64,000 nucleotides of DNA from Dipteris shenzhenensis. Taxonomy: Eukaryota. Made by a program: the position numbers and the translations under genes. The stretch lies in the NCBI GenBank assembly GCA_047967505.1, contig CM106538.1; one strand, 5' to 3'. Of this stretch, positions 1,925-62,757 are shown piece by piece (positions within the stretch are counted from its first letter, which is position 1; each line of letters starts with the position of its first letter). Below the pieces are notes generated by a model. The model was given only the letters and a program-made list of their open reading frames with translations. It ran no database searches and was not told the origin of the DNA.

Positions 1925-2315
1925 TGAGGAGGATGGAGAGGTGAGAAGGAGGATGGAGAGGTCACAAGTGACTCGTGAGAAAGGATGGGAGGTAGACTGT
2001 AGAAGGAGGATGGAGAGATAGAGGTAAAAGAGGATGGAGAGGATGGAGAGGTAGAAGTGAAGGAGAATGGAGAGGAGGAGGATGGAGAGGTAGAAGGTAA
2101 GATTAAAGAGAGGATGGAGAGAAGAAGGATGGAGGGATGGAGTCAGAAGAGCAGGCTGCCAAGCTGCAGGCTGCAGCTTGCAGGATGGAGGAGATGGAGC
2201 AAAGGATGAAGAGGATGGAGAGAGCTCAGAGAAGGATGGAGGTGAGGGTAGGTCCAAGAGTAAAGGATGGGATGGAGAGAGCTTGAAGAAGTGGAGGAAG
2301 GATGCTGAAAGGATG
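1925..2315. repeat. Degenerate GGATGGAGAG purine-rich repeat in hAT leader
   Basis: Many imperfect copies of GGATGGAGA(G); explains the low-complexity N-terminal extension of the 660-aa ORF. Confidence 0.8.
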
Positions 2316-2448
2316 CGGGAGGCGGCGAAAGACGAAGGCGACGAAATTCTGAAAGAAAACCTGTTTTTAGGGTTTCTGGGAAAACAGGAAATACGAAACG
2401 CCGGCGTTTCCGTTTCTGCCCACGAAACGTACGTGTCGTGCAACTATG

Positions 2449-3468
2449 CACCTAGGATACAGTCGGCGGGAGGTCAGTGGATGATTAGGAACGGCTTGCT
2501 GTTCCGGAATGAAAAGATTTGTGTGCCAGATGTTTCGGACCTTAAATCCAAGATTCTCTGGGAGTGTCATGATGCTCCTAGTGCTGGACATCCGGGTATA
2601 CATAGGACTCTGTCTCTTGTGAAGCATACCTTTTATTGGCCTAAGATGCGTGCATTTATTGAGAACTATGTAGTAGGTTGCCGAGTTTGTCAGGTTACTA
2701 AGGCAGAACGCCTTAGAAGCGCGGGCTTATTACAGCAGCAATTAGGGCTGGGATTTTGATCGGGATGGATTTCCTTCTAGGGATTAGACCCCATGGGATG
2801 CTGGAGGCCTCCTGATGTTAAAGTACATCCAGTCTTTCATGTCAGTAGACTGAAAGAAGACTTGGGTCCTCACGAACCTGAGTGTATTCTTGAATTTCTT
2901 GACAGACAGATTCGTAATCGATCTATCACGGAATACAAGATCAAGTGGAAGGATCGTGTTGAGGAGGATGCAACATGGGAGACATTACAAAAACATTTCC
3001 GGGTTTTTTAGCGAACTCAGGAGTGAGTTCCTAGAGGAGGGGGAGTATGTCATGTGCACGGATTGGTATCTGACGTGTACTAGGTACACAGGACTAGCTC
3101 AGGTTAGCCTGGGGAGGCTTAGAGCTAGGCAGGCTTGATTCTCGGCTTGAGTGGCAAGGGTATGAACTATTTATAGGTCTTCGCTATTTTTGGCGCTTGG
3201 GGCCCGAGTCTATAAAAGGGGCCGAGGGGGTTCAGTTCTCAGTGTGCAGTTGGGAGCAAGTTTCGTTCCCAGGTGCTAGGTCTGTTCTTGGATTGAGTCG
3301 CGGACGCGCGCCTGCATCTTAGCGTAGCCCAAGGCCCAGTGGCAGATCCAGGGCTTCACAGCGCCACCTGGTGGTATGGGACACCAGGCGGGTTTGGATC
3401 TAATTGGGAGTTCGTGCCAGTAGCTCAGCTCGTGGCTCGGAGGGGACATCTCCTGATTCGGGATCACA
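2449..3468 (+). mobile_element. Ty3/gypsy chromovirus 3' remnant (integrase Zn finger, GPY/F region, chromodomain, PPT, 3' LTR)
   Basis: ECHDAPSAGHPG...CRVCQ, then VHPVFHVSRLK and EYKIKWKDRVEEDATWE; integrase core deleted. PPT AGAGGAGGGGGAG is followed by TGTCATG at 3048. LTR end at about 3468 is tentative. Confidence 0.8.
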
Positions 3469-13697: not shown

Positions 13698-14051
13698 AGG
13701 AAAAATGTTGGGGGCAAAGATTTTGGGCGGGCTGGGCAGTGGTGTGAACTTCAGACGTTTGTGGGATCAATCCAAGTCTGTTTGAACTATTTTCCATTTC
13801 CAATTTTTGTATTCCACCTGTGCAGAATGTTTATTGCAGAAAGGAACAAAATTCTGGACTGTCATGGTTGAAGCGGATTTCTATTTCTCCTTTTCTAATC
13901 AATTATATATGTAAGAAGTAAATGTGCAATATTGTGAGCTCCGTGTATTAATCTCATTTGATACAAATGTGATAGGACGACTTAGGATATGTTATCTTCT
14001 GACCTTAAAAGGACTAATGTTACTCAGGGTAAAGGGTGAGAAACACTGCAG

Positions 14052-15304
14052 GGAAGTGCTGTGGTTGATCACACAACGGGGCTGAAGAAAATTCTGGAGC
14101 TCTTGCGCTTGGATAAGAGCCATAAAGATGGCATATGTGCTGTTGGTCACCGAGTTGTACATGGAGGGGAGCAGATGACACAGCCAATGCTTGTTACGGA
14201 AGAGGTTAAGAAAGGAATTGAACGAGCCATTCCCCTTGCTCCTCTTCACAATCCTCCAAATCTTGAGGTATTTGATTGCAAACAATTATTCTTGACTTTG
14301 AACTGCAGGAATTAAGTCCATCTGGATGAGTCAGATTCTATATTAGTCTTTCTTTGGTTCAGATATCATGATGGCCATATTGCACATGATTTGCACCCTG
14401 ACGGTAACAAATTCTGCCTTCTGTGCAGGGTATCCGGGTTGCAGAGCAGCTATTTGATTGTCCTCAAGTGGCTGTGTTTGATACAGCTTTCCATTCAACA
14501 ATGCCTGCATGTGCATATATGTATGCACTTCCATACAATTATTATGAAGAGCTTGGTTTACGAAGGTATGGATTTCATGGAACAAGTTATGAATATCTTC
14601 TTGGAGAAGCAGGGAAACACCTTGGTAAGTCTAAGGAGGAGTTGAATTTAATAGTTTGCCACCTTGGGGCTGGGGCCAGTATGGCCGTAATCAAGGGTGG
14701 GAAGTGTGTTGATACCACAATGGGTGTGACTCCTTTGGAGGGCTTGGTGATGGCAACTAGATGTGGTGATATTGACCCAGCAATTTGTGAAATTTTGGAA
14801 ACTCGCAAGGGTCTTACATTAAATCAGATAGGCACCATTTTAAACAAAGAAAGTGGTATATTCGGTATTTGTGGGGAGAAAGATATGAGGTCAGTGATAG
14901 ATTTGTCAGAAGCTGGTAGTGAGAGGCACAGATTAGCATTACAGGTTTATGTGCACCGCATTCGCAAGTATCTTGGAGCATATTATTTGAATCTTGGTGG
15001 CAAAGTTGATGCTCTCATTTTTAGTGCAGGCATAGGAGAACGGTCTGCAAGTGTACGTGAAATGGTTTGCACTGATCTTGACATGCTTGGCCTGAGTATT
15101 GATCAAATAAAGAATCAGGGTGAAGGAAGAGGCTTTCGAGAGATTCAAGCAGACAATTCAAGGGTTAAAGTGCTTGTCATTCCAACTGATGAAGAGCTTT
15201 GCATTGCTCAACAGACCTTGAAAGTTGTCAAAGAGTCAATGCTAATGCCCGAGGAAGAAAGCAAGTGTGGGAACTTACCCTCTCCTATTAAGGAATCTGA
15301 TTGA
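14052..15304 (+). CDS. ACK: Acetate kinase (acetate/propionate kinase family), last two exons: about 14052 (or 14028)-14267 and 14429-15304; N-terminal exon(s) not found
   Basis: Signature motifs [73 protein letters not shown] and [10 protein letters not shown]. Phase-0 GT-AG intron 14268-14428 joins NPPNLE to GIRVA; stop at 15302-15304. Confidence 0.93.
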
Positions 15305-22846: not shown

Positions 22847-23044
22847 CATTAGGAAAAAAGGGAGCTCATTTTGGGGCCTTTTAGAAGAGAGAGAAAATAG
22901 GCTCCCAACCAATCAGGAGTGGGCCAACATAACGTTGAAAATTCAACAAAAGAAGATGAAAATAAGAAAAATAAATAGTACTATATGTTCGTAGAAGCAT
23001 GTCACATTAATGAGGTGATCTAATTTGAATATTTTAAAAATTTA

Positions 23045-24551: not shown

Positions 24552-24720
24552 GAATCCATCAAGTAGTCTAGGTTCCTAGGTCAAGGTCCACTTACCTGCC
24601 ACCATCCAAAAAAAACTAGGTGTTAGAAAAACATAGTTTCATTTGGGTAGACAGGTAATGCCTATTTTCCCTAGCTTGTTATCATTTTACCTAAGAACTA
24701 GACATCCCTCTAGATTCTAG
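24552..24720. repeat. 169-bp conserved self-complementary module, copy 1
   Basis: Colinear homologue at 60092-60260; flanks are not similar. Confidence 0.9.
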
Positions 24721-24753
24721 AGTTTAAAAAATATGGTATATCTTCAAACACAT

Positions 24754-24903
24754 AGGGGGTATTTCACACCCATGAGAAACAAAACATATTGGGGGGTATT
24801 CCACGCCCAATGGTAAAAACCTAATCCTCTCATGAGAAAAAATCCCAAGGGTATTCCACACCCTTAAGTGAGGGAGACGATGAAGGGTGGTATTCCATAC
24901 CCT
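24754..24903. repeat. Four spaced copies of a GGGTATTCCACACCC-like motif
   Basis: Copies at about 24756, 24794, 24849 and 24888. Confidence 0.8.
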
Positions 24904-25571: not shown

Positions 25572-28241
25572 TGGTGGTGGAGGAGGAGCGATGGAGAGTG
25601 ATGGAGCCTCCCTCTCGCCCGTATAGCCCCAACCTACCTCGCTTTCCTACTCGCAGCCTCCCGCGTTCCTGCTCCGTTATCCTTTGTCCCAGCTCTGTAC
25701 ATCCCCATCCCTTTCCAACCTGCAACCATACCTTTCCAGCCTACATCTGTACCCTGCTCATCTTCATCCATGCCTTTCCTGCACTCGACTATACCCTCTT
25801 TGCATTCCATATAGACTGTACGAACGTCCATACAGTCCCAGCCTCAAGTCACCTCTGATTTCTATACATCCCCTCTGCATAGTCTCCATACAGTTTGATT
25901 ATGCTCCTTTTGTGCAATTTGTACCTCTTCTGGAGCAGCCCTCTTCGTCTTGCTCTTTCCTTGATGCCTCTTCTTCCCCTTTCCTGTTGCTTCGACAGAT
26001 GCCTCGTTTGTGTTCTCTGCTTTAACTCCTCTTTTTGCCTCTGCTCCCACATGTGTTTTCATTTAGAGGAAGAGAGGTGCTTTGCTTCCTTCGTGCTCTT
26101 TCAAATCGGCCAAGTTGGATGTTGCAGATGGACCTTCTTCTCCTCGCTAGTTGGATCTTTTTCGCCATATGTGTGCTGCCTCTGTTACAGAAGTTCCTTC
26201 TTTGGGTTCTCCTTTGGTTTGTTCTTTGGACTCTACCTTTGTGATCTTTGGTCTTCGATAGGCTCAGCAGCTTGGGATTTGTCTCTACTTTAAATATAGG
26301 CCCCAAATCCAAAAAACTTTTTTTGTTCACTTTCACTATCATCCAAATTAAAGATTTTTTTAATGATATATTCTAAATATTTGAGATTTTCTAATAATAA
26401 TTGGTAAATAATTAAAATATTCTATAATGTTTATTTTTTTCATGCACTCAACCCCCTAGCTATGGGACTGCCTATAATGTTAAAGTTTTTTTGTGCGCTC
26501 AACCCCCTAGGTATGCAACTACCTTTAAGAACTGTTAATGATATTGTTTCCAAATAAATGAGATTTTTTAATGAGAATGTGAGGAGAATGTTGAGAATGA
26601 TGACAATTTTTGTATATCTACCCCCTTAGTTATATAACCTCCCTAAAGGATAACTGAGCGTTTTTTACATTATACTTAATAACAAACGCCCTCTCCTCCT
26701 TCGTTTATACATGCTCACCCCCTAACATAACCCTTGACCACTCCTCAAACTAACCCTAACCCTTACATGTACTCACTTAACCCCTTAACTGGATCCATAT
26801 AAACCCCTAGATCGTAAAAACCCCTTTAAAATGTTTCTTTTCCACGGCCCACGACCATGCTTGTGTTTGAGCAGCGTGGATGCTCTTGTAACGGATCTCT
26901 TTTTAAGAAAATCAACCTTCTAGTCGATTGCTACTAACAACTCACCTCTTGGTAGATTCCTACAAAGTTCCTATTGACCTCTTTTGCATGCTTTTAAATC
27001 TATTGACCTCTTCCACATTAGCTGTTTTGCACTGCCATTCTTTTACCGCCATGCACCATTCAAGGGAACACTTCTATCTTCTTGCTATTGCTCACGCTCT
27101 CTTCCTTCGTTGTTTTTTACCACCTCGCTCTTCTCAAGGTCTCATTTTTGAGAGATTTTTCTCGGCAACACAGCACCTTGTTTCCGGGCAACATAACCTC
27201 TTCTTATAATAGTGCTCCTTAGCTCCTTTTGGGCTCGCCTCCATAGCTACCTCCATAGCTCTTTTCGAGTTATGTAGGCGAGCGAAGTGCTTGCAGTGGG
27301 ATTGTTCCACACACTCAATGGGATTGCCTAAGCTTAGGCGGCTCTCACTTGGAGTTATGTGTGCTCTAAGTAGTTTATTCATGGCATTGACTCTATTTAG
27401 CAGCTCGACTCTCTGCTAAGATGTAGGTTTTTGTTCCTGGTACTCTCTCTTGGTTCCTTGTACAGAAATCAGCTAGCTGTGCCTTTTATTGTGCTGAGTT
27501 TTTCTGCCCCCTTAGTCTGATTCCATGTCTACTTTTAGACGGTTTGATTGCTCTAATTCACAGTTGACAGCACAACTGTGTCCACTTTAACTCCTTTTTC
27601 CTTTCTTGCTTGCCATCCTCTACTAAAGCACCCATCACAGCGATGCTCTTGTTTCTTGGCTCACTTGTTTTGTATAATTTTTTATAGCTTAATTTTTATG
27701 CTTTCTATTTATATATTTATATATATAGAAAGATAGAGAGATTTAGACTTTTCCCTCTATTTTATGAAATCGTGGTTCCTCTTGATTTATGTAATGTTGA
27801 CTTTATATACAAATATATATGATATATATATATAGTATTTACATTTTGTCCATTTCATTAAGCTTATTTATGTAGATAAGAAAGCTTTTACTTATTTTTT
27901 TAACCCTTTAATTTGCTCTTTAAAACTTTATATTATGGTTTTTTATTTCTTTTAATGTTGTCTATTTTGGTTACATGTTTTGACTCTTTATGGTTAATTA
28001 GTTGCTTCAATCAATTAATTGCCACTAATACTTATAGAAATTCTTAAGAAAATTGGTTTAATTTCCCTTTAAAAGAAATCTTTGTCTAAATTGCCTTTGT
28101 TGTACAATGATGGGTGAGGATTACACCCCCCATTTTTATTTACTTTTTTCTAAAAAGGGGGTGGATTTTTTGCTCTAGAAATTCCCAATCAAGCAATTTA
28201 TGTGCATTTTGCTTCTCTAACCTTTTTTTAACCTAGTTTAC

Positions 28242-28274
28242 CATTAGGGGAGAATTGGGGTCTCAAAAGGGCCT
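28242..28274 (+). repeat. Putative transposon terminus CATTAGGGGAGAATTGGGGTCTCAAAAGGGCCT
   Basis: 32/33 identical to 60466-60498; diverged same-length version at 22847-22879. Confidence 0.6.
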
Positions 28275-28449
28275 CATAAGGAATGGATTAGTCCTAATGA
28301 AAGGGCCAAGGTAGGTCCCAAAAAGTCCTAACCCCCCCTCACGTAGGTGGGTTAAGCCCACAAGTGACCCCACCTCTTACACAACTCTTACTCCTAGGTG
28401 GGAACCAAAAATTTCAGAATTCAAAAATCCAAAATTCAAAATTTGAATT

Positions 28450-28950
28450 CCCTCCCTCCTTCTTTCTCCTCCCTCCCTCCCTCCCCCTCCTCCTTCCCCC
28501 TCCCTCGCTCCCCCTCCTCACTCCCTCCTCCCCCTCCCTCCTCCTCCCCCTCCCTCCCTCCCTCCTCCCCCTCCCCTCTCCTCCCCTCCCCCTCCTCACT
28601 CCCTCCTCCCCCTTCCTCCTCCTCCCCCTCCCTCCCTTCCTCCTCCACACCTGCTCCTTCTACCCTCCCCCTCCCTCCCTCCCCCATGCCTGCTCCTCCT
28701 GCCCTCCCCCTCCCTCCTCTTCCACTGTTGTTCCTCCTCCCCCCTCCCTCTTGCTCCTCCCTCCTCCCTCCTCCCTCCTCCCTCCTTCCTCCTCCATGCC
28801 TACTCCTCCTCACCTGCTGGTCTGCCCCCCTTTCCTCCTCTCTAACTATTGGTCCTCCCACCTCCATCCCTCCTCCTCCTCGCCCTCCCTCTTCTTGCAT
28901 GTTGCTCCTTTAAGCCTCCATCTCCACACCTTCTCCTTCTCTACACTCCT
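28450..28950. repeat. C/T-rich low-complexity leader
   Basis: Near-continuous CCT/CCCT runs upstream of the transposase-like ORF. Confidence 0.9.
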
Positions 28951-28956
28951 TTAGTC

Positions 28957-31353
28957 ATGGCACCATTTGAGGACGTCTCCAACAAGTACCAAGTTCACTT
29001 AGAGTTGGAGGCTGAATATGCAAGCACACATAGTCTAGGATTGATGGGAGCTTCCAAAATCCACAGTCTTCATTCACAAGGAAAGAAGCATCTCGACCTT
29101 TGGGTAGAAGGATCCTTGTATCCTTTAGATCCTGCCAACCAAAAGAGCCCTCCTTTCCATACAATGCATGAGCTAGTTCGGTTTGTTGGAAATGGACATG
29201 CGAGGTTGCTTGGTTATTGCAATCGGTTAAACAATGCTCAGTCAATGGCTATGCAAGCAAGCGAGATGCGCAGAGCCCAAGCAGAGATGCTAGCACATTT
29301 AGGAAATAGCACCATTGTTGCAATGCATAACTCTATGCAGGTCAAAGGGAGAATCCTTATGATAAAGCCAAAGGATTGGGACATAAATTAGAAGAGTCAC
29401 TCTGTAAGCTAGCTGAGTGCAAAAAAGGCTTGGAAAGATCTATATACAATCAAGTACGATGAGCCGTAGAGAAGGCAGAAGAATGAGTGTAAAAGATGAA
29501 AGAAACACCTTTGGGACTGAAGGAGAGGAAAAGAAGGTACTTGCATAACATGGATGCATTGGCACCCACTGGTGGTGCTAGAAAGAGGAGAGTCTAGGCT
29601 ACAAGGTTGGTTATCAAATGTTCCAATGAGATTACACTCTTTTGTGCTACACTGTTTGTGACAAAGTTTCGATTGTGTTCTTCTTTAGGAACTTCATGGA
29701 AGATGTGATGGGAAGAACAGACAGGGATGATATTGATTGTTATATGCTCTAGCTAGTTTATTAAAGTCAAGCGATGTCATTGGGATACTAAGGGACCCAA
29801 TACACAAGCGCCTACATGTGCAAGTTGCTGAGGAGGTGATGAAGGACTTCAAGGATATTGTGGATACAAAGGAGATGCTTGCAGCTTGTGATACTACCGG
29901 TGTAAGTCGTGAAGCTTACACATCTGTTTTCAAAATTTTCAAGTCTACTATTTTGGGAAAGTATAAGAAGTCTACAGTGCCCCTACCCACACCTTGGTCT
30001 GTGAGATGTGCACGGTGAGAAACAAACCAATGTGCAAGTGAAATGCTTGGAGGGTACCATTGCATAAGGGGCATAATGACTTGGAAGAGTAAAAAGAAAT
30101 CTGGCTTGCAAACCTTTGAGATGAATGCTTTCAACAATGTCTACTTAGATGTTGAGAAACTGCAACAAGCAATGGTCAAAGTCTATGGCATGAGAGAAGA
30201 TGGTAAGAGGAAATCCATTATAGCATTGCACTTTACTTAGTTCATTTACTATATCATGTTTATCCTAATGATTTTTCTCTTTTGTTGTACAGATTGCAAT
30301 GGAAAGCTCATATTTGCCATCAAAATGGATGAAGCTCAATTGGTGAAAGAACACAAGTTAGAGAGAGTCAGCATCTACATTATGAATAAAGCCTTAGCCT
30401 TTGTTGAAGGGGATGAAGAAGTAGAGAAAGATTTCTCAGTGCAATCAGAGAAAGATATATGGTGGCTTGCAGCATTTGAGACTCCGAAAGAGTGCCATGA
30501 GACATTGAAGTGGGTTCTAGATAGAACAAGATTCCCATCAACCATCCGAAGACAAGAGGAAGGGCAAACATTGACAGCCGATGGCCATGAAACCTTTCAA
30601 GTTGAATGACATCGTGCTGGTGATTTGAAAACCCTCAAGTGCTTGCATGGTTGTGATACAGGGGCAAATGCAATGAATACATGCCTTTATTGCATGTGTT
30701 TGCAATGTAAGCAAAAGGCTGGCTTACAATGGGAGAATGGCATTCTATCTTGTAGCCAAATGCAAGCTCTGAATTGCGACAAGAAGGATCCAAAGTGGGA
30801 TCCCATCTTGCCCATCCCACTTGAGAGAGTACATATATGTACTTTACATGCAGAACTGCACGTACTTGATAAGTTGTTGTATTTGCATCTTGTTTATGCT
30901 TGGAATTTAATTCCGCAAGAAGTATCCACACGGTGCATTGTAGAAGCTGAGAAGTTGTTATCAGAAATGGGGTTCCATGGAGGACATGTCAAACTTAAGG
31001 AGGATAAGAAAATGTCTGGTGTAACACAGAATCTTCCTGCAAAAGTGTCCATGGGTGGAGGGAAGGCAAGGAGATTCCTATCGAACCATAATCTCGACAA
31101 ACATCCATTGTCTCAAAGTAGTTTGGGTTGGGAATACTAGAAAGAATTGTGTGAATGCACGACCAATAAGGCTTCTCATCCTCAAGTAGCAACTTTGAGA
31201 GCTAAAGTATGGACAAAGGTAGATGCATTGATAAAATTGCTTCACCAGGTTCAAATCGATGAGATGTATTATGAAAGGTTCAAGATGGCTGTGAAAGAGT
31301 TTATGCAATTAATGGTGAAAGCATGGGGGGAGTCGCACATTATGCATTACATG
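28957..31353 (+). pseudogene. RAG1-core/Transib-like DDE transposase, spliced and disrupted
   Basis: Exons about 28957-29605, 29689-30202 and 30293-31353 with phase-compatible GT-AG introns. Motifs IKMDE, QSEKDIWWLAAFETPKECHETL, AGDLKTL, CLYC, ICTLHAE, MGGGKARRFL and HYM(H) occur in RAG1 order. In-frame stops at 30016, 30607 and 31138 among others. Confidence 0.72.
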
Positions 31354-31759
31354 GTAATCTTGGCACCATCGTAATGGGTCTAACCACCAACAGAAGCTAT
31401 GGTGTAATTGTATACAAATATGAAATAAATATATTGCTGATTTTGACCACAATTTGTGTACTCACTCTTTAATATCTTGCTTATTTTGACCACAATTTTT
31501 GTCGATAGCACATGACAATGCCTTGCACTTCAGCAGCTCCAAAGGAGCTTAGGGAGAAAATTTGCCGTGAAAGACCACGATATGCTCTTCGACTTTGCCA
31601 AGGTAATGGGCCAAAGAATGATCTCGCCCAAATGTGCTGCAAACATTACCCCATCAAGATGAGAATTCATCAAGCTCGAATGCATCGTGCAACAATTCAA
31701 CAAACATTAGAAGACCGACAAAACAAATTATACTAAAAGAACATCAAAATAAAAAATAT

Positions 31760-34700: not shown

Positions 34701-35188
34701 CTTAGGTGATTTGGGGCTCAAAATCCCTGAGTGCCCTCATGCCTTAAACCATTTGTGGCTCAAATCCCATGCCTGAGGCTCAAAAGCTAGAGTGGCGAGG
34801 ATTAAGTTCTGTGAGACACTCCACGAAAACCCTGCACATTGCTTGGAATCTTTTGCTTCGAAATATCTGGGGATCAAACTCCTTGAGTTTGAGTTGCACT
34901 CCTTTCATGGATATTTTCATTGGCATGGCTATTTTCATGGACATAGACTTGAATGTGCACGTTGCCTACAATGTTTGGTCTTGGTGTTAGCTGGAACATA
35001 CAACCTGTGCCTGGAATCCTTGGACTTTGGGTATTTGGGGATCAAACTCCTTGAGTTTAAGCTATACTTCTTCCATGTGCACATTTCTTGCTATCACTAG
35101 CTCGTCCATTGAAGTAGATCATGTGGCTTGATCACCTCTAATCATTGATTATCTTGCATTTGGCCGTTGTACTCTATGGATGTTAACA
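31760..35188 (-). mobile_element. Decayed Ty3/gypsy 5' portion: long LTR (about 33623-35188) plus gag
   Basis: Minus-strand fragments KFLGEGDPVSHVE and KQNDTESLRDYIARIKHLN (retrotransposon gag-like), and CFKC*GPHFLKDCP knuckle at about 32040-32085. TG...CA bounded segment 33623-35188; no canonical PBS seen. Confidence 0.65.
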
Positions 35189-36455
35189 CGTGCACTCACA
35201 TGCTTTTGCTTAGACACATTGTCAATTGCATGAATAATTGTGCCGCATACTTTTATTCCACACTCTCAAAGCATGTGTAAAAATAAGATCACTCACAAAC
35301 ACACACAAATGTCATACCTGCATGCCAACTAATCTAATGATCAATGGTACACTATATGCACATGGATACAGATTCAGAAATAATGCCGCCACTAAAGAGG
35401 ATGCACAGAAAGAGCCCACCACCTCAACCACAAGACCCCCTCTAGAGTTCGCAGCCATCTACCTCCTCTCAACCACGGTGTGCATTTTTGGTTCAGATAG
35501 ATAGCTCTGAATAGAATTCTTTTTGCATGACATGGAAACCCAAGAAGAACAAATGCCACCCTAGTCACCACCGGCCCACACACATCCATTGATGGGGCCT
35601 AGTCATTGGAACTTGTGTAGCCACCTACATTGACTTATGCTCTTTCCAATACAACAACATTTTTTTTAGAGCAAAGGGGTCTGGGCAGTTTGTATGAGAG
35701 CCTAAAATCCTTGGAATATAGTCCTACAATGACCACATACATTAGGGACTTTCTCCATTCTTACCACTCCAGCAATGCATAGGTTGGCAAGTATGGAACC
35801 ATCACTATACATCAAAGCCCACTCAACATTATCCTTGACAATACAGTCATTCAAAGGGCCTTCTCACTCCCAATACAAGTTGCCAAATACCTACAAGGCC
35901 TGCTAATGCTAAATTTCTCGAAGTACAGCCTCTCCTTGCTAAGGGCACAATGTTCCATAGGGACAGCATATTACTTCGTACCATCATTAACCCTCGCCTC
36001 AAGGAAGTAGCACAATTCTTATCCACAATCTTGGGGGTTGAGTTAGGCAAGAATCCATCCCTTCCACTCTGCACATTTGTTTTTTGAGTAGGAAACTAAA
36101 GCAATACTAGATCTAACACTTAGTCATCTTCTTCATAAAAAAATTGGATGGTTCATCAGGCCAAAAATGTAAATTTCCACACTTATTGGATGTAATCATA
36201 AAAAAGGAGCTACAAGAATGAGAAATGACTCTGCCCCAATAACCAAAACCTATTGATGAGTTGGACATTCCCATATCACCAGCATGGGAGCCGTCACCAA
36301 CTTCTCCTCCTATAGCATTGGCAAATGCGGATACCTCAGAAGAAATGCCTATTCTAGAGGTCAAAATTGAGGAATTGCCCCACAAGATGCTACAACTCGG
36401 TGCATAACTGCAACCAATATATCTCCAACAATAGCAACAGCCAGAGCTTTCAGCA

Positions 36456-36690
36456 CTAGAGCTTGAGGGCAGGCACCAGCATCGCCCATCGATGCCATGC
36501 CAATCCATGAGCCACAAGGAGAGCTAGTGCTAGATCAACAGTATGACTAATGTATCCAAGTGCCGATGTAGTCTGAAGCTAGAGCTTGAGGCTACATCGG
36601 CACCAGCACCACCCATCGATGCCATGCCAGTCCATGAGCCACAAGGAGAGCTAGTGCTAGATCAATAGTATGACTACTGTATCGAAGTGA
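36456..36690. repeat. About 125-bp tandem duplication
   Basis: CTAGAGCTTGAGG...CCATGAGCCACAAGGAGAGCTAGTGCTAGATCAA...AAGTG occurs twice. Confidence 0.85.
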
Positions 36691-39037
36691 TTGAAATACC
36701 ATTGGAACAACTCCCAACAAGTACCACAAAATCATTAGGATAGTACATGGACACCAATTATATCAGTAGTATCGCCAGTCCTCATCACCATCTATCATTC
36801 TCGATCATCAAGCTAGGCAAATGATCCAAATATCCAAACTATTCACTAGCTTGGCCAAGGAGGAACATGCACAAGAATTGGACAGATAGACTGCAACAAC
36901 AATCGAAGACCAATTCTAGGAAATCGCCAAAGAGGTCAAGCCACTTCGGGCACAAATATATGAGAAGGAGGTTGAAGAAGTGCGCATGAACCAAGTTCTC
37001 CAAGCTCAAGAGCAGGCAGTGATGGATGTGACCTGCAACCTTCACCAAAGCCAAATACAGCTGACAGTAGTAGCAGTACAACAAGCTACGACAATCCTAT
37101 AGACCTACTATAACTCCTTGGCCTCCGCACATGCTTAGTAAATGGAGGCACTAGCACAAGCTCGACTCACTCTAATCCACAAATAAGAAGAGTTCCAGGA
37201 TTGCTAAGACAAGCTTGAACACATGCAATAGTCTTTGGCAATATGCACATTCAGCATTGAAGAGCTTACAAGGGACTACAGAATCTTACAGGACCAACTT
37301 GCTACCACTAAAGAGGCCAACACTTCACTAGCACAAGTCTTAAACCAATGGTCCAATAACACTGAAGTCATTCCTCAACAAGTGCATGCCACCATGCAAA
37401 TGAGAAAGCTTAAGGAGGCATATACATCCATATACCATAAATATAAAGAGAAAATGGATGAGATGCAATCCCAAAAGATGATCATCTCCAAGCTTGAACT
37501 CCAATTGCTAGTGCACAACAATGAGGCAATGGAAGACAACACCAATGAAGTCCCACTCCAATGCACAATGGTGGTATACCAAGAGTTTGTGGCCACTCTA
37601 TAAGAGGAAGACCACCTCAACGCATGAGTGCTTATCCAATGGAAGCAACTCCAAATAAGAATCCCATTGCACTAGCAAAAAGAAGTGTCGGAAGATGATA
37701 GGGCCTATCTCCAACTTCCCATATCTAACCACTCTCTCTGCCAACTTCACAACCTCACTTCCCCTTGCTGCTACCACCATCTTGACCTTCCCTGAGCTCC
37801 ATCCTAACATCTATTCCCTTTATCTTCTCTTTGCTCATGGCTCTCACCATTTTCAACTAACCCAACAGTCACAAACTTACGAGCCTCTCACATCTAGCTT
37901 CTTCCCTTCCCTTGCTGATCCTACCCTCGAGGATTACCAAGCTGCTCAAATCATTTGAGTAGTTCTTCCCCCCCTCCCTCTGCTCCCCCTACCACAACTA
38001 ACACTCTTCCATATTTCTCCCCCATGTCCCCAGATTCTCTCCCTGTCTCATCATCACCTCTGACACTACTTGTGCTACCATCAGTAGAAAATGACACAGT
38101 ATTTGATTTTGAATATCAGGATCTGGATAATCCAATTCGCACTCCCATGTCGAATTCCAATGATGGGTGTGATTTTGATGAGGTACCACTTCTTAGTAAC
38201 CCCATCAAGGAATTTTGGAGCAAATATCTTGATATGAATAATCAAGAAACTTCGTCAGCATCAAATTAGTGAAGATTGGATAAGTAAGTTGGATCCCCAA
38301 CCTGATTGGCACCGTCCCAAGCTCTTTGATGTAATCTTTTTGAAAGAATACTTGCATGCACCTACATTCTCAGAACCAATCCCAAGTTCTATGTAGTTCC
38401 ACGACATCACAAATGGGAAGCCAACATACACATTTTAGGTGAAGATCGCACCATTAATTGGCCAATGATCGAACCATACTCTAGTGTAGGGCACACTGAT
38501 CCAAGCACTTCAGTAGCATGAGCAAATAATGCATGGCAACATTGACCGCTTCCTTCGCCAAAGTGCTATCTTGTGCAAAACATTGGAATACATTCTAGAG
38601 GTCTCTAGCCACCTCAACTGCCATTTGCCTCCACTCACTTTCAATACCAATGAATGGATTGATGCCCAGATTACAAGCCGACTCTATTAAAGAGTAATCT
38701 TCTTAGAAGCACGCCACATATCTCTATTCAAAAAAATGGTGGATACAGGTTATCTGGAAACTTGAGCAAAAATTGTATGGTGCCAAGACTTTACAGTAGG
38801 ATCAACTAGCATGACACAAGTTCCATAGCCACTGGATTTCATGCATGGCATCCTAGCTACGTGATCACAATAAGCCATAACCCGAGGATGGGTAATAAAA
38901 TGGATCCAGGAGTATGTTGTCTCTCTGGCAACATGGACTTAGGTACTACAGAATGTGTGTGTAGAGTAGTGGTGGAAAAGCTTCACTTGTACTTGCATAA
39001 GGCTAGGAATAATCTCTCTTAGGAATCCTCAACAAGA

Positions 39038-39258
39038 AAGTCCTACTTGCAACTCCTACATGCAAGTCCTACATGTGATTCCTACATGCATGTTCTACAA
39101 GCAAGTTTTACATGCAAGTCCTACATGCAATTCCTACATGCATGTTCTACATGTGAGTTCTACATGCAACTCCTACATGTAAATTGCAACTGCTACATGC
39201 AAATTCTATATGCAAGTTCTACATGTAGAGAGAGAATGTCTTATAATTCCTACATGCA
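39038..39258. repeat. 13-bp minisatellite (AAGTCCTACATGC-like), about 15 copies
   Basis: Contiguous degenerate units with no unique spacers. Confidence 0.9.
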
Positions 39259-39419
39259 GAGAAAGAAGCTCTCTAACTTGTATAAATACACCATAATTGA
39301 ATGAAGCCCACACTCTTTGGGGCATTGTGTTGAGTTCTACTTTGGTATTCCAAGCAATTGTCTCAAGTGTCCATGCTTCCTTGCACTCCATGTCCAAAAG
39401 CATGTCCTAACCTTGCAAC

Positions 39420-39600
39420 TCCTCCTCCCCTCTCCTCCAACCTTGCAACCCACCCTCTCCCTCTCCTCCTCCCCCCCTCATTCTACTCCCTTCTCCTCCT
39501 CCTCCTCCCTCCTCCCTCCTCTCTCCTCCTCCTCCTCTTCCCTCCTCCCTCCTCCTCCTCCTCCTCCCTCCTCCTCCTTTCTTCTCTCTCTCGATTCCTC
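39420..39600. repeat. CCT-rich low-complexity tract
   Basis: (CCT)n-like runs. Confidence 0.85.
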
Positions 39601-40789
39601 CCATGCTCTTACATCTTCTTCCTCTCCCACTCTTATGCTCCCCCCAAACCCTTAGTTCCTCAACCCTTAACCTCCATGATGTATGAGGGAGACACGTCTC
39701 CACCATGTACTCTACCGTGAACCTTGGAACCTACTTGTTGGGGATTGTTCCAATGGTATCTCCATCACCTGGGTACAGTAGTCATACTGTTGTCTGGCAC
39801 TAGCTCCCCTTGTGGCTCATGGACTGGCATGTTGTGTTGGTGCCAATGTAGCCTCTGGTTCTGCTGATCTTGACTCAGGCTCTGGCTACCTCTATTGTTG
39901 GAGCTATATTGGTTACAATTGTGCATCGAGCTATAGCATCTCGTGGGGCAATTCCTCAATTCCGACCTCCAGAATAGGCATTTCTTTTGAGGTATCTGCA
40001 TTTGCCAATGTGATAGTAGAAGAAGTTGGTGACGGCTCCCATACTATTTATAAGGGAATTTCAACTCCTCAATAGCTTTTGGTGACTGGGGCAGAGTCAT
40101 CTCTCGTTCCTGTAGCTCTTTATTGATGATTATAGCCAAAAAGTGTGGAATTTTACATTTTTGGCCTGACGAACCATCTAGTTTTTTTGTGAAGAAGATG
40201 ACTAATTGCTGGATCCAATCTTGCTTTAGTTTCCTTCTTAGCAAAACAAATGTGCAAAGTGGAAGGGATCAATTCTTGCCGCACTTAACCCCTAGGATTG
40301 TAGATAGGAATTGTACTACTTCCTTGAGGCAAGGGTCAATGATGGTGCGAAGTGCGAAGTAATATGCTGACCCTATGGAACGTTGTGCCCTTGGCAAGGA
40401 GAGGCTGTACTTCAAAAAATTTAGCATTGGCAAGCCTTATAGGGTATATTTCACCTTTTATTGGGAGTGAAAAGTCCCTTTGAATGACTGTATTGTCGAG
40501 GATGATGTTGAGTGGGCTCTGATGTATAGTGATGATGCCGTACTTGCCAACTTGTGCATTGCTGGAGTGGTAAGAATGGAAAAAGTCCTTGATGTATGTG
40601 GTCATTGTAGGACTGTCCTCCAAGGATTTTAGGCTCTCATACAAACCATCTGAGACCCCTTTGCTCTAAGAAAGATGTTGTTGCATTGGAAATAGCATAA
40701 GTCGATGTAGGTGGCCTCACACGTTCCAATGGCTGGGGTCTGTCAATGGTTGTGTAGGCTGGTGGTGACTGGGGTGGCATTCCCATTGC

Positions 40790-42716
40790 ATCAATTTGTC
40801 CTTCATTCCCCCCCACAAATTGATGACCTCAACCCTAGCAATAGTCCATGGGAAACTTCATGGCTTGCCCACCTCTAGTGCCACAACCTGTTGCATCGAC
40901 AATAGACTCATTTGGGCATCCTCATCCCAACATGATCTCACTCTGACTTTGGTTTGTTGGTTTACAATTGGGAGATAGACAATGACTATGCATGGGAATA
41001 CCCTTAGATCTAATAAGGTAACACATAAGACTAAAAATCATTTGAGGGGGACATCCCAAGGCAGAAAACCCTTATTGACCACACACACAAAAATATTCTA
41101 AGTGGAAGATGTGGGGAAATACCCCCTTTGATGGCATATCTTGTCCTTTTCCTTCTTCTCTTACAAGCTACCATAGTGTGAGGCTCATTGTCATTGGAGA
41201 GGTTCTTGGTGTAGCCAATCTTGTAACTCCTTTGCTGTTTGTCCTTCTCTACACTCTTCAATATATCTTGTCCATATTCTACAATACAAGATCCTTGTAG
41301 TCCTTCACCTTATTTGAGTGTCCAAGCCTTAAAAACATTTTTTGAATCATATGGACTGAAGAGGGTCTTACCACTTGTCATGCAAGGGCAGTGTCTAGTC
41401 TTGTACAAGAGGTGGTCATGATTGTATGGCAAGGTATAGTCAACCAAATGCAAGTACATTTCATACATCATGAAAGATAGTGAAACCATAACTAAGGCAT
41501 CATAATGGTTGTAGTTGAACCTTTTTTCCAATCATATCCATTGGAAATCATCATGCAAGTCATGATATATTCTTCCTTCATGTAAGCTCCAATCCACACT
41601 AGTCAACTAGTCAACAAGATAGCATGGCTTGAAATCCACTTCAAAGTATCATAACCTCAATCCTCAACATAAAAGGTGAAAAATGCATTCAACTGAACTT
41701 AAAAAGTAATCTCTAAATCTCTGATCTGTACTTTAACTCCTCAAGCATCACCTTAGCATTTAGTGTAACATCAAACTTTAAAAATAGTCTAGAAATGCTT
41801 GCAAAAAACAGAGGAACCCTGGAGGATTGCTACCTCACTCCACAAAGCATCAAATAGAGGGCATTTTCTACACAATTAATGATCCTTGGGAGTAGAAGAC
41901 TCAGTGCAAGTCTCAGACCAAAATCTCCAGGGGCAGCAACATCTTCTCTACCTCTAAAAACATGTCTTATTCAAAACCCAACTATTTTTTCTTGATTTTC
42001 TCCTCATTCCCTTGACCATTTGCCCTCAAAATTCACCAGTAGGTGGCTCATAGGGTCTCCTAAGTGCACCTGAGACCATTTTTGAAATGGTGGCTCCAAC
42101 AAGCTAAATTTAAAGAAATGGTGTAGAATGCAGCACAGGCTATAGAGGCAATATTCCTTCAATTCCTCTCAAGTGGAAGTGCACCTTAACTAGGGGAATC
42201 TACACTTAAAAGGGCTAAAGCAATGGTTCAAAGATGAAAGAGAACAAGCACTTGGAAATTTCATGGGAAGAAGAGGAAGAAAAACTTCAAAAACTTCATG
42301 TGGTGAAGAAGATGATGACATGGCACTCAAAGAGGTCTCAAGGAGAGTGAACCAAGGCTTTGATACCACATGTTGGAGTTGCAAGAATGATTGAGAAAGT
42401 GAAGCAAAAGAGAGAGCATACTATTCAAGAGAGGGGCCCAATATATAGGCTCCAGCTACATCCAGTAGTGACATCACATATGAGTTGAGTAGAGCATCTA
42501 GATCCACAAATCTCTCAATCAGTTCCATGATTCTCTCAATCACACACCACACACCTAGATTCACTCAATCACACCTACTGACACCTATCCAGGCACACCA
42601 TGTGTTCACACACTCACAACCTTAGACCTTAGGACTCTAGATCCCATTACATCAATTTGTCCTTCATTTCCATGTCATGCACAGAATCCTCCTTGGAGCT
42701 ATCACTCTGAACCTCA
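40790..42716 (-). mobile_element. LTR retrotransposon 5' remnant (LTR about 42371-42716, PBS, decayed gag) interrupting the right inverted-repeat arm
   Basis: CTTTGATACCA (Met-PBS on the minus strand) adjacent to TGTTGG at 42371; arm homology resumes at about 42717. Left boundary is approximate. Confidence 0.65.
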
Positions 42717-43477
42717 AATGCATGTGGTTGCCATGGTTGAGAGGAGGTAGATAGTTGCTGTGAACTCTAGAGGGAGTCTGGTGGTCTCTTTCTGTGCATC
42801 CTCTTTAGTGGCGGCATTGTTTTTGAACCTGCATGCATGTGCATATGGTGTACCATTGATCATTAGATTAGTTGGCATGCAGGTATGACATTTTTGTGTG
42901 TTTGTGAGACAGCTTATTTTTACACATGCTTTGAGAGTGTGGAGTGAAAGTGTGTGGCACAATTATTCATGCAATTGACAATGTGTCTAAGCGAAAGCGT
43001 ATGAGTGCACGTGACCTAGTAACTAGGTTGGGACTAACTATATGCTTTTCTGTTGTTGCTGGGATTTCAAAGGGTAGCTAGGACTCAAGCATCACTTCTA
43101 AGCCCTAGGTTGAAATCGGTTGATGCTACCTATATGCATAAAGATGTACGTATGCAAGTGAGTTCTCATGATACAATCTAATCCTAACTAAGGAAGACTT
43201 GGGTTTCCCAAATCTTCATTTTTATCAGGGATGGCATGCGTGTTGAAGTAGTAGCACTTTAGCCAACTCCCGTTTATGGTTGTGTTGAATTGGACTCCAT
43301 CCAATGTTTCTAGTAGCATAGCTTTGATGGGATTCATTGTTTTGACTCAGTAGGTTCCTTGACCTAGAAACTTTAGTTGTCCCTTGTGTACTTTGGAATT
43401 GATTAAAGTCAATTCCATGAGGCTAGTAAGTCAATGATGCACATCAAGTTAATTGATTGAAGTTGTATAATATTTGG

Positions 43478-60091: not shown

Positions 60092-60260
60092 GAATCCATC
60101 AAGTAGTCCATGCACCAAGGTCAGGGTCCACTTACCTTCCACCATCCAAATACACTGTATGTTAGAACAATATAGCATGATTTGGGTAGACAAGTAATGC
60201 CTCTATTCCCTGGCTTGTTATTGCTTTACCTAGGAACATGCACAACCTTCTAGATTCTAG
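60092..60260. repeat. 169-bp conserved self-complementary module, copy 2
   Basis: Homologous to 24552-24720 in the same orientation. Confidence 0.9.
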
Positions 60261-60465
60261 TGCATAAAAAGAGTCATCAAGGAGCAAAAATAAAAGGAGA
60301 TAAACCACAAAAAATGTGTCAAAAAAGAGGGTGTTAGTTCACAACCATTAAAATGACCATCATTTAAAATAGACCAAGAGATGAATGATCCTCTTAAGAG
60401 AAGAATTACATCTTGTTATAGGGGGATTGTTCACACCCTTTTTTAAATATGGGGGTAATCCTTAG

Positions 60466-60498
60466 CATTAGGGGAGAATTGGGCTCTCAAAAGGGCCT
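60466..60498 (+). repeat. Putative transposon terminus CATTAGGGGAGAATTGGGCTCTCAAAAGGGCCT
   Basis: 32/33 identical to 28242-28274. Confidence 0.6.
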
Positions 60499-60911
60499 CC
60501 AATTAGTGTTTCCTAATTTCAAGGGATTAGAGAGTGATTTGAGGTGTACCAATGAGAGTGCTAAAAGGTGTGGGGCAATGGTATGTTGAGGTGGAGGGTG
60601 GGCAACCTGCAGAGAGCCCCTATTGGTTGCTCCCCTTACAATAGGGACCACCCAAACCATCCCCCCCCCCTCGTAACCCATGTTTGACCCTCCTACCAAG
60701 TGCACCTCCCCCACATGAGCCCAAAACTACCTTCAATGGGATGGTAGGGCCCTTGTGGTGAATTTTTCTTCTCCCCTCCCTCTTTCTAGGACCTCTGCCC
60801 CCCACTATTCTGGTCTAGCCTGCAAAATCACTCAGATTTGAACCAAATCCCATGCATTTTCGCTCTCCCCCCTCTTTCTCTACTCCCTCCTACTCTGACC
60901 TGCTTGCTACA

Positions 60912-61150
60912 GCTCCTCTCTCTCTCTTTCTCTCCCCTCTCCCTCTCCTGTGCCTCTGTTGGAGCTGCTCTGTCCCTCTTCTTCTCCCTCTCCCGTGCCT
61001 CTGTTGCTGTTGCTTTGTCCCTCTCCTTCTCCCTCTCTTGTGCCTCTGTTGTTGCTGCTCTGTCCCTCTCCTTATCCCTCTCCTATGCCTCTGTTGCTGC
61101 TGCTCTATCCCTCTCCTTCTCCCTCTTTTGTGCCTCTGTTGGATCTGCAT
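60912..61150. repeat. 45-bp tandem repeat, about 5 copies
   Basis: GCTGCTCTGTCCCTCTCCTTCTCCCTCTC...TGCCTCTGTT units; 15-aa periodicity in the overlapping ORFs. Confidence 0.9.
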
Positions 61151-61196
61151 TACCTTATGCAGGAGTCCCATTCTTGCTGTTGCAACCTCTGCAAGC

Positions 61197-62480
61197 ATGG
61201 TGAGGAGAAAGGCTACAAGAAAAGCAATGCTGTGACCTCTTGTGTCTTCCACAACACCAAAAATGCATTGGATGAGTGGATCCCTTGCACCTACAGCTTA
61301 AATGACTAGATAGTGATGAAAGGATCAGCCAAAGGTCCACATAAGCTTCCCAAGAGCAAGAGAGGTGACATCTTGCATGAGTGGAAGGGGCGCATCTTGA
61401 AGTTCAAGTTTGGGAAGAAAGGATGGCTTGCAAATGTGCATTATGTTTACATGGGAAAAGATATGCGGCTTCCTCCATCATTCAATCAATCTAGGATACC
61501 ATCACACTATGAGCCTTTCTATCTATGTACCTTTTTCACCTGCAAGTGTAATGAGTCCATTTGGAAATTTTGTGTTTGGTTTCTAAGAGCTCTTATTTAT
61601 GGTGGCAGATGTCTTCCCTTCGGACCTCGAGGAGTGGGAACTAGTTGAATCATTCATAGGCAAGTTCACTGCAATTCATGAGGATTTAGGTAAGCAAATG
61701 CATGCCGGGGAGAAGTTGGCCTCCTTGCGAATGAAGAATGTGTGTTGGTATAATGCAACATACATCACTCCAATGACATCATCAAGCTATGGCCATCTGC
61801 AAACCATTGCACCACCACAACTTCAAGACATGGATTGTAGCAATGTGGACTCGAGGACATTGCAATCATACAAGGACAAGATTGCAAAGGATGTGGGCAT
61901 GGCCATGAAGTTTACATTTGGATCCAAATGGGCAAGGTTATCTTGGTTTATGCCTCTACACATTTTTGCTTCTTTATTTTAGAATATACATATGCATAGA
62001 ACAAAAACTATGTGGTCCTGCAAGCGTGTAGATGAAAATGCTCTTGAAGATTTACTTGGGATGAATTGGGGAACCAGGTCAGGTGACCAAAAGGGTGATG
62101 TGTTTCAATGTCACGCATGTAAAGACAATGTGGTTATTAGATACCATTTGTCACGCCAAATGTTGTATTTAGCTTTTCAGTACAGGCGCTGGAAGAAAAC
62201 AAATGGCCGGTGGCTTCCCCTAGACTCTAATGATGAAGACAATACGGGGGTAAGTTTGTCTATTGATGTTGAAGAGGGAGATGTCAAGAATGTGAATGTC
62301 ACATCGCAATGGACTCTAAGGGATGTGCGAGAACACCTATTGGTCATGGAGGATGGCATGTCAGAGTCCTACTTTACCTTAAATGGTGGTAAGATCAGCC
62401 ACAGTGTGGAGAAGTGCATGCATAGTGCCAATTTCATTCCTCCTGCAACTTTGAAGATTGCTAACAATGTGTTTGACTAG
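61197..62480 (+). pseudogene. Disrupted gene with N-terminal BAH-like domain and C-terminal ubiquitin-like segment
   Basis: TYSLND*IVMK...HEWKGRILKF...ANVHYVY, then VFPSDLEEWELVESFIGKFTAI...VCWYNATY follows the BAH pattern. C-terminal VNVTSQWTLRDVREHL...YFTLNGGKI resembles a beta-grasp fold. Probable intron ending at AG near 61608; stops and a frameshift present. Confidence 0.5.
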
Positions 62481-62757
62481 TGCAGCATTATATTTTTTGT
62501 CTGTCAAATCCTAGTTATTGCTTCAAAAGATGATGGACAATTAAATTAAAATGTTATTTCTTTTAATGTTTTCTCCTTTCAGTTCATGGTGGTAAATGTT
62601 TTTCAAAAATTTTGGGGATTTTATGATTGATTTTTAGGGTTTTGATATATATTAAGGGGTAAGAGCCCTTTTTACATCACATTCTCACTTTCACATTTAG
62701 AGAACCATAGAAACTCCCATCCTCAAAAGTTACTCCTTGCATCAATTGCTATTTGCC

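Follow-up and report, generated by a model that had tools for sequence, protein, structure and literature searches.

A gene for a predicted BAH and ubiquitin-like protein behind a terminus shared with a RAG1-fold transposase gene in Dipteris shenzhenensis

How does a gene whose predicted product resembles a chromatin reader come to lie directly behind a transposon end? The question is raised by positions 60466-62480 of a 64,000 nucleotide (nt) stretch of contig CM106538.1 (GenBank assembly GCA_047967505.1) of Dipteris shenzhenensis, a stretch that we call the window. A sequence-only reading had noted that the open reading frame (ORF) at this place sits behind the same terminus and the same kind of leader as a RAG1-like transposase gene at 28.2 kb, that it has a BAH-like N-terminus and a ubiquitin-like (UBL) C-terminus, and that it might encode a transposase partner analogous, not homologous, to RAG2. 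The observation is confirmed by the present analysis and the interpretation is partly supported, in that the domains and the linkage find support and the function is left open. On balance, we think that 60466-62480 is probably the accessory-gene end of a two-gene RAG1-fold cut-and-paste transposon, whose accessory protein would tether the element to chromatin.

A repeat boundary at position 60466

The terminus, CATTAGGGGAGAATTGGG(G/C)TCTCAAAAGGGCCTC, occurs twice on the plus strand of the window, at 28242-28275 and at 60466-60499, and the two copies are identical at 33 of 34 nt. No other match is present in the window when up to 3 mismatches are allowed, with 0.00 expected from 100 shuffles, and the claim that both genes stand behind the same terminus thus holds. 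When the window is compared with itself by blastn the 28-kb and 60-kb regions have only 38 nt in common (60462-60499 and 28238-28275), and by tblastn as well the ORF behind the 60-kb terminus is a different one from the transposase-like ORF at 28.9-31.4 kb. The layout of what follows the two termini is the same, as had been read: both leaders turn C/T-rich and then reach an ATG, an order of terminus, C/T-rich leader and ATG that is present at 28242-28957 and also in one metagenome locus, L004. Taking 28242 and 60466 as the two ends of one element was considered and rejected; they represent separate elements, because both termini lie on the plus strand.

Further ends of this type came from a metagenome scan with the transposase alignment as query, which gave 29 loci, 13 of them with at least 500 nt beyond the transposase match. 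Four loci (L001, L004, L011 and L022) have a CATTAGG end 290-530 nt 5′ of the transposase ATG, and the locus ends are composed of CATTAGG, about 20 nt and then a GGGCC(T/C)..TAAG(A/G)A block. The CATTAGG heptamer is unchanged in all five aligned ends and is found in L022, too. Within the window the pattern CATTAGG-N(16-28)-GGCC has four matches where 0.40 are expected, namely the ends at 28242 and 60466, a third end at 22847, and the inverted heptamer inside the first end. The third terminus interrupts a Ty3/gypsy integrase ORF exactly where its SH3 domain ends, and no transposase or BAH-UBL gene was detected 3′ of it.

Contigs of two DNA runs (X2 and X4) from a related or identical organism, mapped to 60300-62700 at a likeness of at least 90%, place the start of the repeat to the nucleotide. 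Contig depth is 0 across 60300-60461 and amounts to 172 and 262 in the two runs in the bin 60462-60542; 4 and 5 contigs, respectively, have a loose end exactly at 60466, with 2 further loose ends at 60464. The flanks of the contigs that break at 60464/60466 disagree with one another (agreement 0.53-0.65), and therefore stem from many copies at different places. Position 60466 is a genuine repeat boundary, that is, a transposon end. Two single contigs add to this picture: one from X2 has the first 33 nt in common and beyond 60498 continues as the 28-kb copy, and one from X4 joins 60587 to 62037 with three other letters in between. The latter is an internal-deletion derivative in which the terminus and the 3′ portion of the gene remain.

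When the window and seven loci were searched for inverted repeats, no convincing second end emerged. About 50 nt inside each terminus there is an inverted heptamer (CCTAATG at 28293-28299 and CCTAATT at 60513-60519) with further ATTAG/CTAAT motifs close by, and from their sequence these are possibly candidate subterminal binding sites. The DNA just 5′ of the 60466 terminus has a relative elsewhere in the window, 60092-60270 being 81% identical to 24552-24730 over 180 nt, and motifs like GGGGTATTCCACACCC are found in both upstream stretches (at 24756, 24793, 24849, 24889 and 60421), with a weaker one at 28.12 kb. The 180-nt similarity reflects either an older repeat that is favoured as a target or a yet unplaced part of the element family.

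The gene and its predicted protein

The structure of the gene was deduced from tblastn with homologues and from their alignment, and comprises about 400 codons in two exons (Table 1). Residues 7-119 of the homologue P0024 align to 61217-61546, and the ATG at 61197 opens a frame different from that of the downstream coding sequence. In-frame TAG codons are present at 61307-61309 and 61980-61982. The window copy is a pseudogene, with two in-frame stops and one frameshift, and other copies are open at two of these three defects. Position 61980 reads C in all covering contigs (2 of 2 in X2, 3 of 3 in X4) and homologues read straight through it, the TAG being private to the window copy; behind 61220 an extra C is found in 2 contigs of X4 (63.5/63.5 depth) and in 1 contig of X2 (13.8/42.3). 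None of the contig differences listed falls at 61307-61309; there are at least 106 further ones. C>T and G>A changes predominate among the copies (25 and 30 of 117 in X2), an excess that suggests methylated, silenced repeats, in which such a pattern is expected.

Two introns had originally been proposed for this gene, of which we retain one, the 82-nt intron at 61527-61608. The other, at about 61946-62010, was rejected because homologues read through it; this segment is coding sequence that holds the second stop, where other copies have CAG.

The last 165 residues of the protein were searched against 1.84 billion representatives, which yielded 61 proteins at E≤1e-3 and, within these, 20 at E≤1e-10; P0057 and P0059, long bacterial-type repeat proteins with other Pfam families, were left out of the family. 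Most of the matches are fragments on short, multi-copy-like contigs. The full-length members P0024 (412 residues), P0063 (373) and P0064 (418) align across all three parts of the protein, and no member has a name or a Pfam family. P0031 (594 residues) has the BAH, middle and UBL parts and, in addition, a zinc ribbon at its N-terminus (PF18073-like, E 2.6e-5). Many sequencing runs contributed to its cluster, which has 29 near-identical members lying on contigs of about 2.2 kb, and this form may be a conserved cellular or domesticated gene.

P0024, which is 35% identical to the window copy, was modelled with AlphaFold2 from a 48-row alignment that included the exon 2 pieces of the window. The model has a mean predicted local distance difference test score (pLDDT) of 85.3 and a predicted template modelling score of 0.78, and its sole poor stretch, residues 102-126 (pLDDT below 50), corresponds to an unspliced intron of P0024 itself. 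It confidently predicts an N-terminal BAH fold, a family-specific middle domain and a C-terminal ubiquitin-like beta-grasp. All 38 Foldseek matches listed from the PDB contain a BAH domain (E 2e-7 to 2e-5), and VIA-align on the Foldseek list gave BAH in 50 of 50 rows. The best match is Arabidopsis EBS (5z8n_B; Z-score 13.7, root-mean-square deviation (rmsd) 2.9 over 127 residues, 20% identity, model residues 10-198); the BAH domain of ORC1b likewise reaches Z 13.7. A search independent of Foldseek among 48,161 chains has BAH domains at ranks 1-19 (Z 13.7-8.0, model 8-208), followed at all 31 ranks from 20 to 50 by ubiquitin-superfold domains that match model residues 338-412. The UBL of USP7 (Z 7.4, rmsd 2.0 over 68 residues) and that of Herpud2 (Z 7.3, rmsd 2.1 over 66) match this range, as do ubiquitin, TBK1 ULD, PCGF1 RAWUL, UBX and FERM-F1; a Z of about 7 is middling by the scale of the search tool, yet it spans the whole small domain. 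The predicted fold of a homologue thus agrees with both domain assignments of the sequence-only reading.

The five best of eight matches of the family profile in the PDB are also of ubiquitin type: SUMO2 (0.021), ubiquilin-3 (0.1 and 0.12), polyubiquitin (0.21) and a redesigned ubiquitin (0.4). They fall at profile positions 213-272, where they line up with strands 1-2, the helix and strand 3. Since the C-termini of the family end without Gly-Gly, the UBL would be a built-in domain and not a conjugatable modifier. The middle domain (P0024 residues 209-337) is the best conserved part of the family; it matched nothing in the structure searches of the P0024 model. In the ESM Atlas there was no usable match for the whole protein, and the middle domain scored 0.76-0.78, under the meaningful level.

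The predicted BAH part has its closest relatives in plants. The readers EBS, SHL, AIPP3, ASI1 and ORC1b (5z8n, 5znr, 7cce, 7xpj and 5hh7) are the best matches to the first ~200 residues, with Z 13.7-11.4 at 12-23% identity, but where they have a PHD, TFIIS or RRM partner the present protein has its middle domain and UBL, and the Pfam BAH profile does not match the family. The family alignment contains a conserved W in W(K/R)(G/A)x(I/V)xxF. It also has (H/Y)(V/A)(Y/F) at the presumed place of W-x-Y in the readers, so that the family would retain W plus (H/Y)x(Y/F) where methyl-lysine readers presumably have Y, W and Y, the W of the W-x-Y cage motif being H or Y. No Kelch propeller or PHD finger is among the structure matches listed for the P0024 model, and with its BAH, middle and beta-grasp parts the protein is indeed analogous to RAG2 at most and not homologous to it.

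The transposase and its second gene

The transposase family comprises proteins of about 700-860 residues, with 15 matches in the protein search. The window copy is decayed and is without the last ~130 residues. We modelled an ORF of 783 residues from L004 using a 33-row alignment; its overall pLDDT is 64.1, and the core blocks between residues 260 and 705 mostly reach 75-96. The model matches the RAG1 core (4wwx_E) with a Z of 14.4 over 406 aligned residues, model 255-762 corresponding to RAG1 461-979, and further matches are zebrafish RAG1 (Z 13.9), amphioxus BbRAGL (12.7) and HzTransib (11.2). The six chains at Z≥8 are all RAG1, BbRAGL or HzTransib, the next fold after this group being the P element transposase at Z 6.1, and Foldseek ranks 1-47 are RAG1, RAGL or Transib (E 1e-7). 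The earlier designation as RAG1-like is therefore supported by the predicted fold only. Pfam searches drew a blank both with three full-length ORFs (E≤10) and with ten proteins (E≤0.1), and a profile of 15 transposase sequences yielded nothing but coiled-coil noise in the PDB.

Several motifs are strongly conserved in the transposase alignment: KLDE (D in 25 of 26 rows), EWH..D.K (D in 32 of 32), C..C (32 of 32) and H.C..H (32 of 32), and in all 6 rows that reach far enough H....H is followed 19 residues on by GME. The conserved motifs are kept in the decayed window copy. By their sequence these residues would fit a D..D..E enzyme with a zinc site, and the spacing of H....H and GME resembles what we take to be that of H937, H942 and E962 in RAG1. 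Assignment to Transib proper is not supported. We prefer the term RAG1-fold transposase, because the terminus is not of the CAC... type and because CACTA-type folds could not compete in the comparison.

Which gene accompanies this transposase? Among the 29 loci, tblastn with all BAH-UBL family proteins matched one, L015. In this locus the transposase exons occupy 352-3401 on the plus strand and the BAH-UBL gene runs on the minus strand from the contig end at 4207 to about 3580, so that the two genes converge tail-to-tail with their stops about 180 nt apart. The BAH-UBL member of L015 is 24-45% identical to the family members aligned with it. A prediction of a complex between the L015 transposase exon and the C-terminal half of the L015 BAH-UBL protein scored 0.00; the partner was poorly folded and alignments were not used.

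Flanking ORFs were read in 15 loci, and 6 of these contain another convergent second gene, ORF2A (Table 1). It encodes about 550-630 residues and has no Pfam match; a word search found only its own cluster, and a profile-profile comparison indicates that BAH-UBL and ORF2A are unrelated (probability 0.08%). In two further loci an ORF resembling histone H3 (PF00125, E 7e-34) lies directly 3′ of a transposase of the same family and on the same strand. As a rule a second gene faces the transposase in this family, and different genes occupy the slot. The H3-like ORFs suggest that the family repeatedly carries chromatin-related second genes.

Table 1. Coordinates of the termini and genes discussed in the text; positions without a locus name are those of the window.
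Feature	Position	Strand	Remarks
Terminus, BAH-UBL gene side	60466-60499	+	heptamer CATTAGG, ~20 nt spacer, GGGCCTC block
Untranslated leader	60500-61196	+	C/T-rich from ~60760; four 45-nt tandem units at 60935-61159
Exon 1	61197-61526	+	start codon and first part of the predicted BAH domain, broken
Intron	61527-61608	+	82 nt, GT..AG, phase 1; junction restores a motif uninterrupted in P0063/P0064
Exon 2	61609-62480	+	rest of predicted BAH, middle domain, UBL; stop 62478-62480
Predicted domains in exon 2	BAH to ~61840; middle ~61840-62250; UBL ~62253-62465	+	P0024 ranges mapped by tblastn
Terminus, transposase side of another copy	28242-28275	+	matches 60466-60499
Decayed transposase gene	28958-31371	+	in-frame stops 30016-18, 30607-09, 31138-40
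Third terminus of the family, CATTAGG...GGGGCCTT	22847-22890	+	pattern match
ORF2A	L001 4962-3045; L004 4884-3261; L011 5120-3290	-	
ORF2A	L013 ~4866-3105; L019 3687-3036; L022 5347-3467	-	
Histone H3-like ORF	L009 1675-2226; L008 2129-2704	+	3′ of transposase

Accessory gene, captured gene or host gene

In the reading that we favour, elements of the family would hold two genes, each read inward from a CATTAGG terminus and converging tail-to-tail. One of them would be the transposase and the other, in the present lineage, the ~400-residue protein with BAH, middle and UBL parts. Of two decayed copies in the window, one would accordingly be represented by its accessory-gene end (60466) and the other by its transposase end (28242), and we infer that both ends belong to one element type. 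This reading builds on the terminus, the repeat boundary, the gene structure with its defects, the folds and the one physical linkage. We further infer that the BAH-UBL protein binds chromatin and works with the transposase. Its BAH domain would bind to nucleosomes or to a histone tail with a modification, the transposase or a host factor would be held by the UBL, the middle domain or both, and cutting and integration might in this way be guided to a given chromatin state or licensed by it. Such a chromatin-tether logic is shared with the RAG2 PHD finger, chromodomain integrases and LEDGF.

A number of points weigh against this reading. The linkage of the ORF to the transposase, as proposed from sequence, stands as far as the shared terminus, L015 and the two-gene layout of the relatives go, but it was seen in only 1 of 29 loci, L015 being among the 13 with at least 500 nt beyond the transposase match. 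In the window, tblastn found no minus-strand transposase 3′ of 62480 and there is no inverted copy of the terminus beyond 28293, and neither the window nor the metagenome loci yielded a complete element with both ends. Because the inverted transposase predicted beyond 62480 is absent, the 60466 copy is a truncated, interrupted or non-autonomous derivative. The match of the transposase to RAG1 is one of predicted fold alone, and the CACTA-type enzymes have no solved structure and so were absent from the fold competition. On the side of the accessory protein, neither the window ORFs nor 12 family members match Pfam BAH (PF01426) or ubiquitin at E≤1, no BAH domain appeared in the PDB profile search at E≤10, and the ubiquitin-type profile matches are individually not significant. 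The register of the aromatic cage is one of sequence and follows the presumed reader motif. A search of sequencing runs listed no RNA run that contains the gene, the best share of words being 0.25, and the raw reads of two RNA runs contain 3 reads, 90-95% alike, too few to judge expression or the splicing of 61527-61608. Moreover, the P0031 form could be a host gene that served as the source of the cargo.

The linkage evidence would serve equally well for an anti-silencing factor, that is, a BAH-UBL protein that shields the element from host silencing and does not guide integration. It might do so by occupying the marks used by host BAH readers or chromomethylases, or through a UBL that recruits a deubiquitinase or the proteasome, in a role like that of VANC in VANDAL elements. 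The closest folds are those of plant silencing-pathway readers (EBS, SHL, AIPP3, ASI1, ZMET2 and MET1) and the C>T and G>A excess among the family copies points in the same direction. However, no known anti-silencing protein is similar to the BAH-UBL protein, and a reader-like fold does not say what follows binding; we regard a purely protective role as rather unlikely. The gene could also have been captured from the host by a non-autonomous element, in which case the 60466 unit would share with the transposase copy just the end that the transposase binds, and the BAH-UBL protein would have no role in transposition, as after capture by Pack-MULEs or Helitrons. Only ~34-38 nt are indeed common to the two window copies, the presence of ORF2A in 6 loci and of the H3-like ORF in 2 speaks for an exchangeable slot, and the P0031 cluster with its 594-residue, 29-member form resembles a cellular gene that has been conserved and has these same domains. 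Against this, the diverged member in L015 (24-45% identity) holds the same convergent position, which argues for long retention and not for a one-off capture; the 61 representatives of the family lie mostly on short multi-copy-like contigs, and the leader is laid out like the one of the transposase gene. Capture without a function in transposition thus appears unlikely to us.

It is very improbable that we are dealing with an ordinary host gene, now a pseudogene, which happens to lie behind a solo transposon end with no relation to it. The lack of a right end, which leaves the element without a delimitation in the window, would be compatible with such a gene. Yet in both runs (87 and 89 contigs, with many diverged copies) the copy depth shows no break across the gene between 60466 and at least 62700, and the internal deletion from 60587 to 62037 joins terminus and gene in one contig; a single-copy host gene is unlikely because it would show neither this continuous multi-copy depth nor a deletion derivative.

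The two-gene element that we favour has its nearest counterpart in the RAG-like (ProtoRAG/RAGL) transposons, which according to PMC9435367 and PMC4411706 carry RAG1-like and RAG2-like genes between asymmetric terminal inverted repeats (TIRs). Features in common are a transposase with a predicted RAG1 fold, a convergent second gene (BAH-UBL in L015, ORF2A in six loci), a second protein with a predicted domain of the histone-tail-reading class, and a bipartite end in which a spacer separates the conserved heptamer from a second block. It differs in that the partner consists of BAH, middle and UBL parts instead of a Kelch propeller and a PHD finger and is no RAG2 homologue, in that the heptamer is CATTAGG and not CAC..., in its plant-like host genome, and in a transposase that HMMER does not detect as RAG1 or Transib. 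For Transib itself, PMC1131882 (Kapitonov and Jurka 2005) gives a TIR in which CACAATG and a nonamer are separated by a 23-nt spacer, together with a duplication of 5 bp. The predicted fold (HzTransib, PDB 6pqn, Z 11.2) and the transposase size of ~700-850 residues are alike, whereas classical Transibs encode one protein and the ends here have CATTAGG (5 of 5 aligned ends and L022) in place of a CACAATG-like heptamer. The conserved order D..D..CxxC..HxxxxH..E is presumably common to both. PMC9435367 mentions 39 plant Transib-like proteins, which may include the present family.

A two-gene cut-and-paste transposon with a chromatin-binding accessory protein would be of a kind already known. Plant DNA transposons with accessory proteins include PIF/Harbinger with its Myb-like ORF, CACTA with TnpA, MuDR with MURB and VANDAL with VANC, and these proteins are element-encoded, non-catalytic and believed to act by binding to DNA or chromatin or against silencing. 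To our knowledge, no BAH or ubiquitin-like protein is among them, and they are not partners of a RAG1-fold enzyme. A partial literature search found nothing on a BAH or ubiquitin-like transposon protein or on a plant two-gene element with a RAG1-fold enzyme, and as far as this search reaches a BAH-UBL accessory gene in a RAG1-fold transposon has not been described.

The remainder of the window is repeat-rich, plant-like DNA with copia, Ty3/gypsy, hAT-DUF659 and zf-RVT ORFs. It also contains a spliced acetate kinase gene at 14040-15304 on the plus strand, with an exon at 14040-14315 followed by an uninterrupted exon of 298 residues (PF00871, E 2.5e-105; TIGR00016 ackA above cut-off). Acetate kinase is unusual for land plants, and contamination is argued against by the intron and the plant transposons on both sides. 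A segmented inverted repeat at 35187-43013 is composed of eight arm pairs of 61-235 nt that are 85-92% complementary and enclose about 3-7 kb.

One of the persistent questions about how V(D)J recombination arose concerns the dependence of RAG1 on RAG2, a reader of histone H3 trimethylated at lysine 4, and the only natural comparisons so far that we know of are RAG-like transposons already carrying RAG2-like genes. If the reading that we favour is true, a distant RAG1-fold family with an unrelated reader-like partner in the same layout would provide an independent case on the need for a chromatin tether. The BAH-UBL protein would join the short list of plant transposon accessory proteins, and intact copies would be a candidate tool for chromatin-directed integration, the dead copy in the window serving as a pointer to the family. 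A bolder proposal, which we put forward tentatively and hold to be possible at best, is that RAG1-fold transposases of the green lineage independently took on a convergent chromatin-reader partner and that the BAH-UBL protein reads a specific histone mark and, by way of its UBL or its middle domain, licenses or aims cleavage by the transposase. In that event RAG1-type nucleases would have become coupled to histone readers on two or more separate occasions, and the exchangeable second-gene slot, with BAH-UBL, ORF2A or a histone H3 variant, would represent a general chromatin toolkit of these elements.

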